Shown: in pieces, positions 8,264 through 12,821 of the stretch
Position numbering within the stretch: the stretch's first letter is position 1
Layout of the letters: every line of letters begins with the position of its first letter
From: a virus
Taxonomy: Duplodnaviria; Caudoviricetes
Length of the DNA stretch: 64,000 bases
Strand: one strand, 5' to 3'
Virus record (IMG/VR): IMGVR_UViG_3300047094_001064
Location: 1,140-65,139 of that record
Made by a program: the position numbers and the translations under genes
Notes under the pieces: generated by a model
Databases searched by the model: none
Seen by the model: the letters and a program-made list of their open reading frames with translations, nothing else
What the model was told of the DNA's origin: nothing

Positions 8264-8299
8264 TATAAATATTACTATTAATCATATAACTATTTATGG
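8264..8299. promoter_or_regulatory. face-to-face late promoters for divergent gp4 and gp48
   Basis: TATAAATA on plus at 8264-8271; CATAAATA on minus at 8299-8292. Confidence 0.6.
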
Positions 8300-9498
8300 C
8301 ACTATCAAAGGTAGCAAATTTAATTCAAAAGAATTTAGGTAATTTAACAGGTGGAGGTCTGGCTGGTATTGGCGCTGGATTAGTAGGAGGATTATTAGAT
8401 GGTGCAAAGAATAGTGTACAGACAAATGCCGCTGCTGCTAAAATATTAAACAAATCACCTTTAGAAATAGACGATACAAGTCCTGTGTCGCATATGAAAG
8501 AAAATCCATATAACTATGGTACAGTGTATTATCCATCTGATATACAAAATTTAGGTACAGGTCATTATATGCTATTTGATGTTATAGTTAATGATCATAC
8601 GACATATCAAAATGCATCATTTAAAAATAATAAAATAAGTCCTAACAAAGTTACGAATAGAGTTTTAGGTCAAGATATAGACGCAGCAGCTGTAGGTGGA
8701 ACATTTTCTGGTTCAACAGTTAAACAAAAAGGTTTTACAGGTAGAGTTGCTACATTAAAAGAAAATGGATTAGAACAAAGTAGAATTACAACTTTATCAT
8801 CAGGAATTCAAAAAGGTAAAGGTGCAGGTGTAGGAGCAACACATAATAGAGTAACAGATACGATTGTACTATATACTCCTAAAGATTTAAAAACAACTTA
8901 TCTTGTGAATCACGAAGGTGCTGAAACAGGAATGTTAGGTGATTTAGCAGGAATAGATTTTACATCACCAAGTGATATTGCAGGAAGATTAAAAGAAATT
9001 CCAACAAGATTTTTAACTGAAGTTGCTGCTATGGGATTAGCAATTATACCAGGTGCTGGTGATTTAAAAGCGGCAATGACACGTACTACTGGTAGAGCAT
9101 TTAATAACAATTTAGAAATGGTATTTAAAGGTGTACCAATGAGAGAATTTTCTTATGAATTTGAATTTGCACCACGTAATAGAAAAGAATTAGATAGTGC
9201 ACAAAAGATTATTAACTTATTTAAATTTCATATGCATCCAGAATTAGGTAGTGGTAATGATTTTATAACACCATCTGAATTTCAAATAACATATATGTAT
9301 ATGCAAAATAGAAATTCATATATTCCTAGAATCAGCAGATGCGTATGTACTTCATTAGAATTATCACACGGAGCAGAAGGCGTATTCAGTACTTTTGCTG
9401 GTGATGAATTAGGCGCAGCACCCATATACACAAAAATGTTATTAAAATTTAGTGAAACAGAAATTATGACTAAGAAAACTATTGCTGAAGGATTTTAA
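8296..9498 (+). CDS. gp48: baseplate tail-tube cap
   Basis: YP.D...GHY.LF, I.LY.P, NN..E..FKG...REFSYEF.FAPRN..E, II..FK.HM.P. Confidence 0.9.
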   Translation: MALSKVANLIQKNLGNLTGGGLAGIGAGLVGGLLDGAKNSVQTNAAAAKILNKSPLEIDDTSPVSHMKENPYNYGTVYYPSDIQNLGTGHYMLFDVIVNDHTTYQNASFKNNKISPNKVTNRVLGQDIDAAAVGGTFSGSTVKQKGFTGRVATLKENGLEQSRITTLSSGIQKGKGAGVGATHNRVTDTIVLYTPKDLKTTYLVNHEGAETGMLGDLAGIDFTSPSDIAGRLKEIPTRFLTEVAAMGLAIIPGAGDLKAAMTRTTGRAFNNNLEMVFKGVPMREFSYEFEFAPRNRKELDSAQKIINLFKFHMHPELGSGNDFITPSEFQITYMYMQNRNSYIPRISRCVCTSLELSHGAEGVFSTFAGDELGAAPIYTKMLLKFSETEIMTKKTIAEGF

Positions 9499-10031
9499 TG
9501 TATTTCTCATATTTTCCAAAAGGTTTATACGATTTAAAAGGTGATGGTAATTATAAACTAGTCACTGATTTATTAAAACGTGTAAAGGTTAGATCAAAAG
9601 TTTTAAACGAAGCTAGTTTATATGATTTATACGATATACCAGAAGGCGAGACACCTGAAATGACAGCATTCAAACATTTTGGAAGTACTGCATATCACTG
9701 GATTATATTAATGACAAATAATATTACAGATCGTTATTATGGCTGGCCATTGACAACAGAACAATTTGATACCTATGTTGCTGATAAGTACACAAATCCT
9801 AACGGCATACATCATTACGAAATTACACAACTTAGCGGCAATACAACAACATCAGGTCCAAGTGACTACAGTATGAAAATTGAAGTAAATTCCACAACAC
9901 CTAACGCTGTTGCTGTGACTAATAGAGAATATGAGGAAAGATTACAAGACGAAAAAAGACAAATCAAATTATTAAATGTTGCTTACTTACCTGTATTATT
10001 AGAAGAATTTGAAAACTTGATGGTTGAATAA
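9498..10031 (+). CDS. gp53: baseplate wedge subunit (LysM-like)
   Basis: YFSYFP, Y.I.EGETPE..A...G....HWII...N.I.D.YY.WPL, YE....D.KRQIKLL. Confidence 0.92.
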   Translation: MYFSYFPKGLYDLKGDGNYKLVTDLLKRVKVRSKVLNEASLYDLYDIPEGETPEMTAFKHFGSTAYHWIILMTNNITDRYYGWPLTTEQFDTYVADKYTNPNGIHHYEITQLSGNTTTSGPSDYSMKIEVNSTTPNAVAVTNREYEERLQDEKRQIKLLNVAYLPVLLEEFENLMVE

Positions 10032-11515
10032 TGAGTACCATATATGATACACTGGACGCAAGTACCTTAAGAAAACCTGGTGCGTTTTCATTAACAGATA
10101 TAAATTTAGTATCCTATTCTAGCGCAAAAGGCGATACTGAACCTAAAAGAATTTCAATTGAGACTATGGTCGTAGATTTAAATATCTATGAAAGCATATT
10201 CAATAAATGTTTATCCGGTAATCTATTGGTTGTTGACTCTAACAATGTAGTTGGAAATATGCCATTGACTGGCTATGAACGTTTAGAATTTAAATTCTTT
10301 ACACCATCAAGCTCCAAGGGTTATGATTTTTCAGTTAAATCAGGTAACCCAATGTACATATACAAAATCAGCAAGAGACAAGCTATTAATCCTAGAACGC
10401 AAATGTATATATTACATTTTTGTAGTAAAGAATTAATGACGAATGAGGAAGTAAAAGTACAAAATGCACAGACTGATACCTATACGAATATGGTAGCTAA
10501 TATTGTTACAAATTCAGATTTTTTAAATACTGCTAAAAATATATATGTAGAACCTTCACAAGGATTACACACAGAAGTGTTTGGTAGTGATAGACCTTTT
10601 GACGCAATAGAACATTTATCACTTAAAACAATTAGTTCAAAGTATAATAACGCTGGTTATCATTTTTACGAAACTTCTGATGGATTCTTTTATCGCTCAT
10701 TAGAAAGTATGTTAGCTGTTGAATCAAATACAGCAAGACCCGTACTTGCAAAGTTTAGACCTAAACCAGCCAATATACGTGACGGTGGTAATAAGGATAT
10801 AAAGAACGAAATGCAAATCGCTATTAAGTTTAAAATCGTAGATCAATTTGATACATTGAAAAATTTAAGAAATGGCGTATATGCAAGTAAACTCATTACA
10901 CACGATGCAACCTATAAACAGTTTAAAGTACACGATTTTGATTATAATACAGAATATGAACAATCAATGCACACTGAACCAGGTAAAGATGGTATACGTA
11001 CAGACAATACAGGAATACTGCCGTTGTTTAATAAAGAAGGTAAATTCCTTTCTTCACAATACAATACAAGCAGAATGTTTGCATCGAGTACACAGAAAAT
11101 ACACGATAACACAGAACTTCCAAATCCAAGAGACTATTTACAAAAACGATTATCACAGCGCCTTGCGTTTACATCTTTTAAATTAGAAATTACAGTACCA
11201 GGATTTACCGGATTAACAGCAGGAGATTTAATTACTTTTGAAATGCCATCGTTTCAACCTTATGGCGAAGGCAATCCACGTGATAATGACCCTTATATGA
11301 GTGGCCGTTATTTAATTACTTCTATACGTCATCAATTAAATCGTAAACAAAATAAACACATAATGATTTTAGAGTGTATGAAAGACAGTGTAAGAAAACC
11401 TTATCCTGAAGAAAATGTAGATACATTCACAGGTAAAGAAAAAGAACGTAGAGGTATAATCAATATATACGAATTGGATAAAAATACAACAAACGCATTA
11501 AACAACTTTTTTTAA
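10031..11515 (+). CDS. baseplate hub protein (gp27/gpD-like)
   Basis: IYESIF...LSG...VD, PL.G.ERLE, FYET..GF.YRSLE, VPG...L.AGD.I, SGRYLIT.IRH; sits between gp53 and gp5. Confidence 0.7.
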   Translation: MSTIYDTLDASTLRKPGAFSLTDINLVSYSSAKGDTEPKRISIETMVVDLNIYESIFNKCLSGNLLVVDSNNVVGNMPLTGYERLEFKFFTPSSSKGYDFSVKSGNPMYIYKISKRQAINPRTQMYILHFCSKELMTNEEVKVQNAQTDTYTNMVANIVTNSDFLNTAKNIYVEPSQGLHTEVFGSDRPFDAIEHLSLKTISSKYNNAGYHFYETSDGFFYRSLESMLAVESNTARPVLAKFRPKPANIRDGGNKDIKNEMQIAIKFKIVDQFDTLKNLRNGVYASKLITHDATYKQFKVHDFDYNTEYEQSMHTEPGKDGIRTDNTGILPLFNKEGKFLSSQYNTSRMFASSTQKIHDNTELPNPRDYLQKRLSQRLAFTSFKLEITVPGFTGLTAGDLITFEMPSFQPYGEGNPRDNDPYMSGRYLITSIRHQLNRKQNKHIMILECMKDSVRKPYPEENVDTFTGKEKERRGIINIYELDKNTTNALNNFF

Positions 11516-11631
11516 CCGCAGAGACGCTCGCTAAGACGGCCGGCTAACGGCTGAAAAATATGAGAATATATATACGGCCTATACAGCTACGGTGCCTAAA
11601 TATACATAACAACTGATAGAGGAGTAAATCA

Positions 11632-11727
11632 ATGATTAATGAACTAAACTTTACAGGTTTCAAAGAAGCCTTGAGAAATATAAAGAAATGGCTCACTGCC
11701 AGAAAATGTAAGTGTAAACAAAAATGA
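11632..11727 (+). CDS. 31-aa basic micro-protein
   Basis: MINELNFTGFKEALRNIKKWLTARKCKCKQK, with a strong AGAGGAG RBS. Confidence 0.55.
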   Translation: MINELNFTGFKEALRNIKKWLTARKCKCKQK

Positions 11728-11861
11728 ATGAAAAAAAGACATTATCGGAACAGCTGAAAGAACTCTATGTTAAATGCCGTCTTGCGACCTTTACGAACAG
11801 TGAATACTGGCTTTATGTATGTATTATATTGTTTTGTTTATGGTATTTAAAGGCCGCGTGA
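11724..11861 (+). CDS. 45-aa micro-protein with C-terminal TM
   Basis: MNEKKTLSEQLKELYVKCRLATFTNSEYWLYVCIILFCLWYLKAA; ATGA overlap with the previous ORF. Confidence 0.5.
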   Translation: MNEKKTLSEQLKELYVKCRLATFTNSEYWLYVCIILFCLWYLKAA

Positions 11862-11948
11862 GTTTGCGTAGAATAGGAATAAATAGATGTTTATGACGTA
11901 TGCCGTTGTGTTATTATCGTTCGGCTTTAGCGAGCGTTCGGAGAGAAT

Positions 11949-12821
11949 ATGAATGAAAATTTTTTAGGCCAAAACGGCTTTATATGGTTTGTCGGTGTTG
12001 TAGAAGATCGGCAAGATCCATTACGTATCGGCCGTGTGCGTGTAAGAGTGCTTGGTGTACATACGGAGAATAAACAAATATTGCCGACTGAGAATTTGCC
12101 TTGGGCGACTATTGTGTTGCCGGTGATCTCTAGCGGCATTAGTGGATTTGGTTGGTCAAAGCCGTTTTTGGTTGAGGGCAGTTGGGTGATGGGTTATTTC
12201 CGTGATGGAATGGGAAAACAGGAACCGGTGGTGCTTGGCAGTTTACCTGGTTATACAATTGCATATGGTGATCCAAAGATTGGCTTTAGCGATCCTAGAC
12301 CACGTGAGGATAATGAAGAGCTTTCCGTTTATCCTTTATATACAAACGAATCTGATGTTTCACGTATAGCGGTGGGTGATGAAGAAAAGCCGCATCCGAG
12401 CCGAGCCGTTATGCAGGCTGCACGTGTAACCGGTATAACAAGTGTCAATACAACTTGGGATCAACCAGCCATACCCGGCATATCATCTTATCCATACAAT
12501 AACACATATGAAACAGAAGCTGGCCATACATTTACATTTGACGACACACCCGGCAATGAACACGTAACTCTAAGATCAAACACTGGCTCATATATCACAA
12601 TGGATAGCAATGGCAATGTGATCTCATATACTAAGAATAACAGCTATAGCATTACAGAAAACAATAGTCATATATACATACAAGGTGAATGGAATGTAAC
12701 AGCGAATGGAAATCTAAACATACATAGCAATAACAATTTAAATCTATTTGCAGCCGGGAATATGAATTTAACTGCCGGTGGCGCAGTGGCCATCAGTGGC
12801 GCAACAATTGATCTGAACTAA
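11949..12821 (+). CDS. gp5: baseplate central spike (OB-fold plus short beta-helix, no lysozyme domain)
   Basis: WFVGVVEDRQDPLRIGRVRVRVLG.HT, LPWA, GSWVMGYFRDG..Q.PVVLGS, YPYN..YET.AGH...FDDTPG.E, ends IDLN. Confidence 0.93.
   Translation: MNENFLGQNGFIWFVGVVEDRQDPLRIGRVRVRVLGVHTENKQILPTENLPWATIVLPVISSGISGFGWSKPFLVEGSWVMGYFRDGMGKQEPVVLGSLPGYTIAYGDPKIGFSDPRPREDNEELSVYPLYTNESDVSRIAVGDEEKPHPSRAVMQAARVTGITSVNTTWDQPAIPGISSYPYNNTYETEAGHTFTFDDTPGNEHVTLRSNTGSYITMDSNGNVISYTKNNSYSITENNSHIYIQGEWNVTANGNLNIHSNNNLNLFAAGNMNLTAGGAVAISGATIDLN

Follow-up and report, generated by a model that had tools for sequence, protein, structure and literature searches.

The window analysed here, a stretch of 64,000 nucleotides (nt) from the Caudoviricetes record IMGVR_UViG_3300047094_001064, derives from a T4-like myophage with an AT-rich (~31% G+C) and densely packed genome, in which the baseplate hub gene and the gene of the gp5 spike are separated by a gap of 433 nt whose two ends are predicted to pair with each other in the messenger RNA (mRNA) as a long-range stem. 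All features of this region described below lie on the plus strand. The hub gene (10031-11515, stop codon TAA at 11513-15) encodes a protein of 494 amino acids (aa) with a gp27 fold: it matches the PHROG 350 tail protein (E-value 3e-86), and its AlphaFold model (pLDDT 68.6) matches the T4 gp27 chain 1k28_D in a Foldseek comparison (E-value 1.6e-15, target TM score 0.67), while by sequence alone the Pfam and PDB searches gave no match. The gp5 spike gene (11949-12821, ATG at 11949) encodes 290 aa predicted to form an OB domain (Pfam Gp5_OB, E-value 1.3e-18) and a beta-helix, without a lysozyme domain, and T4 gp5 (chain 1pdl_A) was found in the PDB search with an E-value of 2.5e-33. Both genes had been named a gp27-like hub and gp5 in an earlier note made from the sequence only, and the structural and domain searches bear this out.

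The two arms of the stem, ACGCTCGCTAA (11524-34) and TTAGCGAGCGT (11927-37), are 100% complementary over 11 nt and have 392 nt between them. On reading the sequence all positions in the earlier note were found to be correct (hub TAA, CCG, ACGCTCGCTAA, GCCG, CGGC, TTAGCGAGCGT, CGG, GGAG and gp5 ATG), as were its statements that the left arm follows the hub stop codon without any intervening base and that the core is a perfect inverted repeat of 11 base pairs (bp) about 400 nt apart. The long-range stem is contained in both the minimum-free-energy fold and the centroid structure of the RNA 11505-11960. Its core helix is formed by G-ACGCTCGCTAA-G (11523-11535) and T-TTAGCGAGCGT-T (11926-11938, positions -23 to -11 from the gp5 ATG) and comprises 12-13 bp including a terminal G.U pair at each end (G11523·U11938 and G11535.U11926), with pair probabilities of 0.5-1.0 in sequence contexts of 456, 851 and 1401 nt and of 0.94-1.0 for the central eight pairs; the helix as a whole is put at 0.8-1.0 in these contexts. 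An outer helix joins CCG (11516-11518) to CGG (11939-41) with pair probabilities of 0.98, 0.77 and 0.14 in the same three contexts. Together with the bases that follow it, this CGG (11939-11943) overlaps the Shine-Dalgarno (SD) sequence GGAG of gp5 (11940-43). The right arm (11921-11941) thus adjoins the gp5 ribosome-binding site and, as proposed earlier, reaches the first two bases of the GGAG; only half of the SD is covered, however, and this by the weakest and context-dependent helix.

Further inwards the predicted pairing is less uniform. The minimum-free-energy fold contains a local hairpin CGGCCG/CGGCTG (11537-11553; 11537-42 with 11548-53) which outcompetes the long-range alternative 11538-43/11921-26, so that the GCCG/CGGC segment proposed in the earlier note (11539-42/11922-25) has a pair probability of only ~0.05 in the full fold. 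A weaker inner zipper follows, in which ATGA, AATATATA and ACGGC (11560-11578) pair in the minimum-free-energy fold with GCCGT, TGTGTTATT and TCGT (11902-11920) at probabilities of 0.35-0.8. Of the zipper segments put forward earlier, ACGGC/GCCGT (11574-78/11902-06) is well supported (~0.8) and the AU-rich stretch with its two G.U pairs moderately so (0.35-0.7), whereas ATAC/GTAT (~0.11) is not; the left inner-zipper sequence 11560-11578 varies by insertions and deletions between close haplotypes. When the two ends are modelled as separate strands, all 21 right-arm bases 11921-41 are paired (3 + 12 + 6 bp) and the two bulges are confined to the left strand; the full fold leaves ~16 bp of this stem, the inner 6 bp having a probability of ~0.05. 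In 5/5 sequences tested the plus-strand duplex exceeds that of the minus strand in stability by 6-13 kcal/mol, and it is therefore regarded as an RNA feature of the mRNA (sense) strand, as the earlier note had supposed.

A bare inverted repeat of 11 nt is ordinary in this AT-rich window: 27 perfect 11-nt inverted repeats with a spacing of 20-600 nt occur, fewer than the mean of 35.2 obtained from 200 Markov simulations. The core repeat is the sole one of these 27 with at least six G/C, and its 11-mer (allowing one mismatch) occurs at these two places only in the 64 kb (expected 0.12; two or more occurrences in 1 of 100 shuffles). The extended duplex is unusual. Between the 90 nt at the left and the 90 nt at the right it amounts to -49.9 kcal/mol (z score -3.55), which was matched by none of 200 shuffles; with 63 nt on either side the z score is -3.4 and the best of 300 shuffles barely equals it, and across the haplotypes of the window lineage z scores of -3.4 to -4.8 were obtained. 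The stability of the whole-gap fold is ordinary (z score -1.3 in the window). Homologous gaps are a better control than shuffles, and for this comparison the first 60 nt of the gap were paired with the last 35 nt before gp5 in 140 distinct hub-gp5 gaps of related phages. The median of this control is -11.4 kcal/mol and its 5th percentile -17.3 kcal/mol, whereas the window lineage reaches -31 to -33 kcal/mol and the next best gap, ~10 kcal/mol behind, -21.3 kcal/mol.

A scan with a degenerate motif of the right element yielded 38 viral and 47 metagenome loci, which represent 40 distinct combinations of left and right ends. Strong complementarity was detected among these in the window lineage and in one metagenome contig, L179, only. 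Eight loci belong to the window lineage (some being one contig present in two collections); they have three haplotypes at the right end, their core does not vary, and DNA near-identical to the window was found in 16 lake-water metagenome runs. About 30 sister sequences with the same architecture of two open reading frames (ORFs) gave -5.6 to -16 kcal/mol, values that mismatched partners reach as well. When the ends of 32 lineage representatives were combined with one another, the left ends of the window and of L179 each ranked their own right end first. Judged from the gp5 tree, in which the window lineage and L179 form a clade with a support of 100/99, the stem is a derived trait of this one clade, a small group of lake-water T4-like phages. 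Further members of the clade were sought with a pattern scan of genome contigs (0 matches) and with L179 gp5 as query, which retrieved the window lineage only; a scan with the hairpin motif described below added one L179-like contig (L317), which ends before the right arm.

The gp5 proteins of L179 and the window are 57-58% identical and separated by a tree path of 0.69 changes per site, and in L179 the pairing is kept with changed arm sequences. Its stem has a stability of -34.2 kcal/mol, its own right end was the first of 32 tried against the L179 left end, and its minimum-free-energy fold has a three-helix stack of 5 + 9 + 6 bp. The outer helix is CCG/CGG in the window and CCGAG/UUCGG in L179, the core helix ACGCUCGCUAA/UUAGCGAGCGU in the window and ACGCCGCUG/UAGCGGCGU in L179, and the inner helix GGCCGG/UCGGCU in the window (the 6 bp of low probability in the full fold) and CGGCAC/GUGUCG in L179. 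Compared with the window, the L179 core lacks both U11528 and its partner A11933 and has a G.U in place of one A-U pair, and the inner helix of L179 combines a left unit that has been duplicated with a right strand of altered sequence. Smaller changes also fit the helix: T11926C in the haplotype L135/L002 converts G11535.U to G-C, and the left-arm changes C to U and A to G in L317 stand opposite G and U and are compatible with wobble pairing.

The left core lies within an older conserved motif, which reads GAGACCGCCGCUCCGACGGC in the sisters and GCUCGCUA in L012/L014, while the right core looks like an insertion of ~10 nt in comparison with the nearest gp5 relatives (CGGCUU-A-UCGG in L026). 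The helix may have arisen in an ancestor shared by the window lineage and L179, when ~10 nt complementary to the older motif behind the hub stop codon would have appeared just upstream of gp5, possibly as an inverted copy of the left motif that was subsequently retained by selection. The left gap end itself (11516-11553; 266-330 in L179) consists of tandem GC-rich units of ~11 nt (GAGAC.GC...), two in the window and the sister lineages and three in L179, and relatives carry 2-3 copies of a CCGA/CCGG motif at ~10 nt spacing there.

A closing helix common to the whole family (left CCGR, right AUCGG) was considered and rejected, as cognate pairs were no better than non-cognate ones, and RNAalifold detected no common closing helix in whole-gap alignments of five subgroups or of 42 subfamily sequences. 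As a separate observation, sister lineages without the stem have another long-range complement centred on GGCC (left part at ~+60 from the hub stop, right part just before TGCGTAG), for instance GCUGGCCACC with GGUGGCCAGC in L032 (10 bp). Read by eye, one of its A-U pairs is replaced by G-C in the L112 type, and L118 has a longer helix; a weaker counterpart in the window, also read by eye, is CGGCCU (11575-80) with AGGCCG (11851-56).

The gap bridged by the stem was described as an inserted cassette in the earlier note. Most relatives with gp5 proteins 38-70% identical to that of the window have a gap of 350-500 nt, while in a minority hub and gp5 overlap or abut: the two genes overlap by 1 nt in four loci (L010, L011, L020, L029), and at least 13 further loci of 110 have hub-gp5 distances of -11 to +7 nt. 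In the gp5 tree the gap-bearing lineages form one clade (100/98), with five of the six gapless rows outside and one (L027) inside. The order of elements in the gaps of relatives is GC-rich repeats after the hub stop, one ORF of 60-115 aa or two small ORFs, a hairpin and an element of ~80 nt, and the annotation of the cultured Pelagibacter phage Mosig has a hypothetical protein of 111 aa in the gap. By these sequence comparisons the gap is an old module, orthologous across a large clade that includes Mosig, and not a recent cassette. A mobile cassette with terminal inverted repeats was likewise rejected, given this orthology and the uniqueness of the arm 11-mer in the 64 kb; no duplication of the flanks was seen on reading the sequence and no transposase-like ORF was found in the gap with Pfam and PHROG.

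The two ORFs of 31 and 45 aa that the earlier note had placed in the loop are both present and are probably real small genes. ORF 1 (11632-11727, 31 aa) is preceded by a strong SD, GAGGAG 7 nt upstream of its ATG, and is kept in 7/7 aligned relatives with an invariant CKCK; ORF 2 (11724-11861, 45 aa, hydrophobic C-terminal half), whose ATG overlaps the ORF 1 stop codon (ATGA), is kept in 7/7 aligned relatives as well, with an in-frame 9-nt insertion or deletion in L179. Searches of the small ORFs and of the longer gap ORFs of relatives against Pfam and PHROG gave nothing below an E-value of 0.04. Three codons before the ORF 2 stop there is an in-frame heptamer U UUA AAG (11846-11852), of the type known as a classic -1 slippery pattern. 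The -1 frame behind it runs for 14 codons, and its peptide (GRVSLRRIGINRCL) is similar to a motif, LRTAILNRLK, which in L009-type relatives lies close to the end of their single long gap ORF. The heptamer may represent a frameshift site or the remnant of a split gene.

A hairpin GTC-TTGC-GAC with a UNGC loop (11779-11788) lies inside ORF 2 or, in relatives, inside the annotated hypothetical protein. In 20 distinct sequences (alignment A3) its covariation score is 0.343 compared with 0.165 in shuffles, a value reached by 0 of 500; the second pair from the loop is G-C in ten and U-A in eight of them. The swaps render the flanking codons mutual reverse complements (AGU/ACU, AAU/AUU, AUG/CAU, GUG/CAC), and it appears from these sequences that the pairing rather than the amino acids is what is kept.

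Between ORF 2 and gp5 lies a conserved element of ~80 nt (11863-11941, its family-wide part 11863-11925; 2415-2494 in Mosig, L195). It follows the pattern TTTGCGTA, N9, nAAATRG, N9, RCGTAT ... TTAAAAG or TTATTATC ... ATCGG at a fixed distance from the gp5 ATG. In an alignment of 39 diverse sequences (A2) the conserved stretch contains a single gapped column, with GCGTA, AAT and other columns invariant, and its blocks recur every ~15 nt and are conserved whichever reading frame covers them. A scan with its motif matched at least 119 viral contigs, with the gp5 start 39-48 nt downstream in 65 of 77 new loci examined; of the 11 misses read by eye, seven carry the same element and four are GC-rich chance matches. 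RNAalifold on the 39 sequences predicted four pairs at -0.25 kcal/mol with no compensatory change, and the element is therefore considered to be without a local fold; it could be the binding site of a regulator or an atypical promoter. In the literature we found no description of the covarying hairpin or of this element.

Searches with Rfam 15 gave 0 matches at gathering thresholds in the whole window, and within 11300-12200, at E-values up to 10, only three chance-level matches (0.26 to 8.3). A group I intron or other ribozyme in the gap thus has no Rfam support, and the gap as one large structured non-coding RNA was rejected on account of a mean whole-gap z score of -0.66 over 22 lineages.

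The local gene order begins with a gp48-like tail-tube cap (8296-9498), which is followed by gp53 (9498-10031) and the hub gene. The cultured relatives closest by gp5 are Mosig (43%) and Methylophilales phage Melnitz (40%), and the sole match of the window in a DNA search of cultured phages was 63 nt of gp5 in Mosig. In Melnitz (L196, 2354-2498) a tRNA-Leu gene, not the hub gene, precedes the gene matching the gp5 OB domain, and a separate gene for a "baseplate hub subunit/tail lysozyme" follows it; the order hub-gap-gp5 is therefore not universal in the family. The search of the window for transfer RNA and transfer-messenger RNA genes found none. Within the gp5 coding region there is a second perfect 11-nt inverted repeat, AAAACGGCTTT (11971-11981) and AAAGCCGTTTT (12158-12168), with 176 nt between its arms.

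Judged by its motifs the phage uses T4-type late promoters: the window contains 15 exact copies of TATAAATA, 12 of them at most 150 nt upstream of the start of an ORF on the same strand, and one of the copies, at 8264, stands ahead of gp48. A further candidate late promoter noticed earlier, the AATAAATA box at 11878-11885, is indeed present, its last base lying 63 nt before the gp5 ATG, and it matches the consensus NATAAATA given for cyanomyoviruses (PMC2984593). This box is identical in the window lineage and L179 only; the other 34 rows of alignment A2 have only nAAATRG or a close variant, and the first positions of the octamer vary. An mRNA leader that begins downstream of the AATAAATA box lacks structure (z score +0.46). 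While most ORFs of the window have A/U-rich leaders, a GGAG or GAGG at most 22 nt upstream was found in 11 of 55, among them ORF 1 and gp5, which flank the loop. Stem, SD and near-consensus late box co-occur in the same clade, which is suggestive as far as sequence patterns go. In the metatranscriptome run X19 a single 232-nt contig covers 11866-12086 and is uninformative on transcript starts, ends and strand; from the RNA run X17 no sequence could be aligned.

That the RNA helix is real and selected within the narrow clade is probably correct. Beyond this we tentatively propose that the selected sense-strand helix masks the region of gp5 initiation on late mRNA produced by read-through and ties gp5 translation to that of the hub; the role in gp5 translation is plausible and based on structure prediction, and for the statement as a whole our confidence falls slightly short of even. 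On transcripts reading through from the TATAAATA box at 8264 the predicted helix would close the gap of ~430 nt into a loop containing the two small genes and the conserved gp5-upstream element, and would set the hub stop codon beside the gp5 start. Positions -28 to -8 upstream of the gp5 ATG would lie in duplex, including the first two bases of the GGAG, and initiation at gp5 on this mRNA would be repressed unless the base of the stem is opened. Since the left arm starts at the base after the TAA, a ribosome terminating there would, in the window lineage, open the stem base and thereby free the SD. Synthesis of gp5 would then follow that of the hub in a similar manner as with the overlapping genes of gapless relatives, in which the overlap or abutment of hub and gp5 makes it plausible that coupling was the ancestral condition and that the stem could restore it. 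An mRNA initiated at the internal AATAAATA box would not include the left arm, and gp5 could be translated freely from it.

Several observations weigh against this proposal. The earlier expectation of covarying arms in relatives with a similar gap is not borne out in 30 of the 32 lineage representatives, which have the same gap and show no preference for cognate pairing (mean residual +0.74, p 0.97), so that the gap evidently works without the stem. Only two independent lineages possess the stem, too few for a statistical test of covariation. Furthermore, MAFFT places the left arm of L179 on a different unit than the pairing-based alignment does, and the stem may thus have been re-made in a shifted register rather than conserved at each pair. 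In an abundant natural haplotype from a lake metagenome (run X16, contig depth 48) the core has C11527G while 11934 is unchanged, which leaves an uncompensated G.G mismatch at a cost of ~4 kcal/mol, the other eleven core pairs staying at probabilities of 0.81-0.97. The helix touching the SD comprises 3 bp only and its probability drops to 0.14 in the 1401-nt context. Finally, the hub stop codon of L179 lies 15 nt before the stem, a distance beyond the reach of a terminating ribosome by its usual footprint. The X16 haplotype differs in addition by 11547 A>G, a 7-nt deletion at 11552, 11919 G>A and 11920 T>G.

The duplex might instead be an RNase III-type site of ~21 bp, the cleavage of which would separate the hub mRNA, the small-ORF segment and the gp5 mRNA and alter their stability or translation. 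The 21 paired right-arm bases of the two-strand model and the stack of similar length in L179 (5 + 9 + 6 bp) would suit such a site, RNase III substrates being about two helical turns long, and cleavage would put the gp5 SD near a new 5' end. With the ~16 bp left in the full fold and the improbable inner 6 bp, however, the duplex is of borderline length; nor does this explanation account for a stem that starts exactly at a stop codon and ends in an SD, and it seems unlikely.

It is similarly unlikely that the stem acts as a structural clamp on the conserved gap module in a role other than gp5 initiation, be it protection from nucleases or the presentation of the small ORFs or the upstream element. 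There are other constrained features in the gap, namely the covarying ORF 2 hairpin, the ~80-nt element and the GGCC-centred complements of the sisters. However, the stability of the whole gap is ordinary, both over the 22 lineages and in the window, there is no Rfam match and no closing helix is common to the family.

The arms could also be a neutral by-product of a template switch or inverted duplication that placed a reverse-complement copy of the left motif beside gp5. The resemblance of the right core to an insertion of ~10 nt relative to L026 would fit this origin, the invariance of the arms within the shallow window lineage would suit a recent event, and the X16 haplotype tolerates a mismatch in the core. 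Neutral drift over the distance to L179 should, however, have erased an 11-bp match, and a by-product without function is therefore hard to square with L179, which at 0.69 changes per site keeps a stem of equal strength with changed arms and a paired deletion; the strand asymmetry, moreover, favours sense RNA. We regard the neutral explanation as having a low probability. A DNA-level element, that is, inverted sites for one looping protein, the ends of a mobile cassette or a cruciform, is highly improbable even though the inverted repeat flanks a discrete segment of ~400 bp that is missing from some relatives, since the gap is orthologous throughout the clade and its ends keep their positions with respect to hub and gp5, the 11-mer is present nowhere else in the 64 kb, the flanks show no duplication and the gap no transposase-like ORF, the G.U pairs used would be mismatches in DNA and on the other strand, and arms 392 bp apart are too far from each other to form a cruciform.

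The hub (gp27) and spike (gp5) proteins are assembled in a constant ratio. Overlapping genes couple their translation in related phages, and here a module of ~430 nt intervenes. If the stem controls gp5 initiation as proposed, a DNA phage would have repaired translational coupling by RNA folding after the insertion of genes, and because the arms are short and a diverged, naturally compensated version exists in L179, the stem would provide a compact natural system for long-range coupling. Independent of the stem, the gap region annotated as a hypothetical protein in Mosig carries the covarying hairpin and the conserved upstream element, the latter being present in more than 100 aquatic T4-like phage contigs.

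The comparison with the gapless relatives concerns the same gene pair and the same presumed purpose of matched hub and spike output. In these relatives a stop/start overlap of the AUGA type couples the genes directly and without RNA structure, whereas the 433 nt between the two codons of the window would be bridged by folding only. Among characterised systems the closest, by analogy, is the operator pseudoknot of L35-L20 in Escherichia coli. The infC-rpmI-rplT (IF3-L35-L20) operator forms a long-range pseudoknot in which, as is predicted here, a far-upstream mRNA segment pairs beside the regulated cistron and sequesters the neighbours of its initiation site, and translational coupling carries the effect downstream (PMC1888825). 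That pseudoknot is bound and stabilised by the repressor protein L20, whereas the phage structure is a plain interrupted stem. Unlike in the E. coli operator, the upstream arm in the phage abuts the stop codon of the preceding gene.

Control between cistrons is also known from the RNA coliphages, the Min Jou long-distance interaction of MS2 being of this kind. Likewise, long-distance RNA interactions in Q-beta are reported to tie the translation of one cistron, through the structure at a ribosome-binding site, to events at another (PMC2978339). The leviviruses have RNA genomes, in which translation of the coat gene opens the replicase site, whereas the stem described here would act in the late mRNA of a T4-like DNA phage and, unlike in the coliphages, would be opened by termination at the upstream gene. 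The stems processed by RNase III around the 16S and 23S ribosomal RNAs and in T7 early mRNA resemble the present one in that sequences flanking a large loop form a long duplex within a polycistronic transcript. For such a site the present duplex would be rather short, and it is bounded by a stop codon on one side and an SD on the other.

A more far-reaching possibility is that the ribosome or its small subunit stays on the mRNA after the hub and is handed across the stem base to the gp5 start 433 nt downstream, which we consider quite improbable. In the 35S RNA of cauliflower mosaic virus, where ribosomes are shunted, a large stem has a reading frame ending just ahead of its base and the next start immediately beyond the opposite side of that base. 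A handover at the stem base would be the bacterial counterpart of this shunt and would restore one-to-one translation of hub and spike after the insertion of the module, a notion to which we give equally little credence; the cauliflower mosaic virus shunt operates by scanning in eukaryotes, and we know of nothing comparable shown in bacteria. A search of the full-text literature found no description of a hub-gp5 stem. The kind of mechanism is thus known from other systems, and what is new here is its location between hub and spike in a T4-like phage, its span over two small genes and the joining of a stop codon to an SD.

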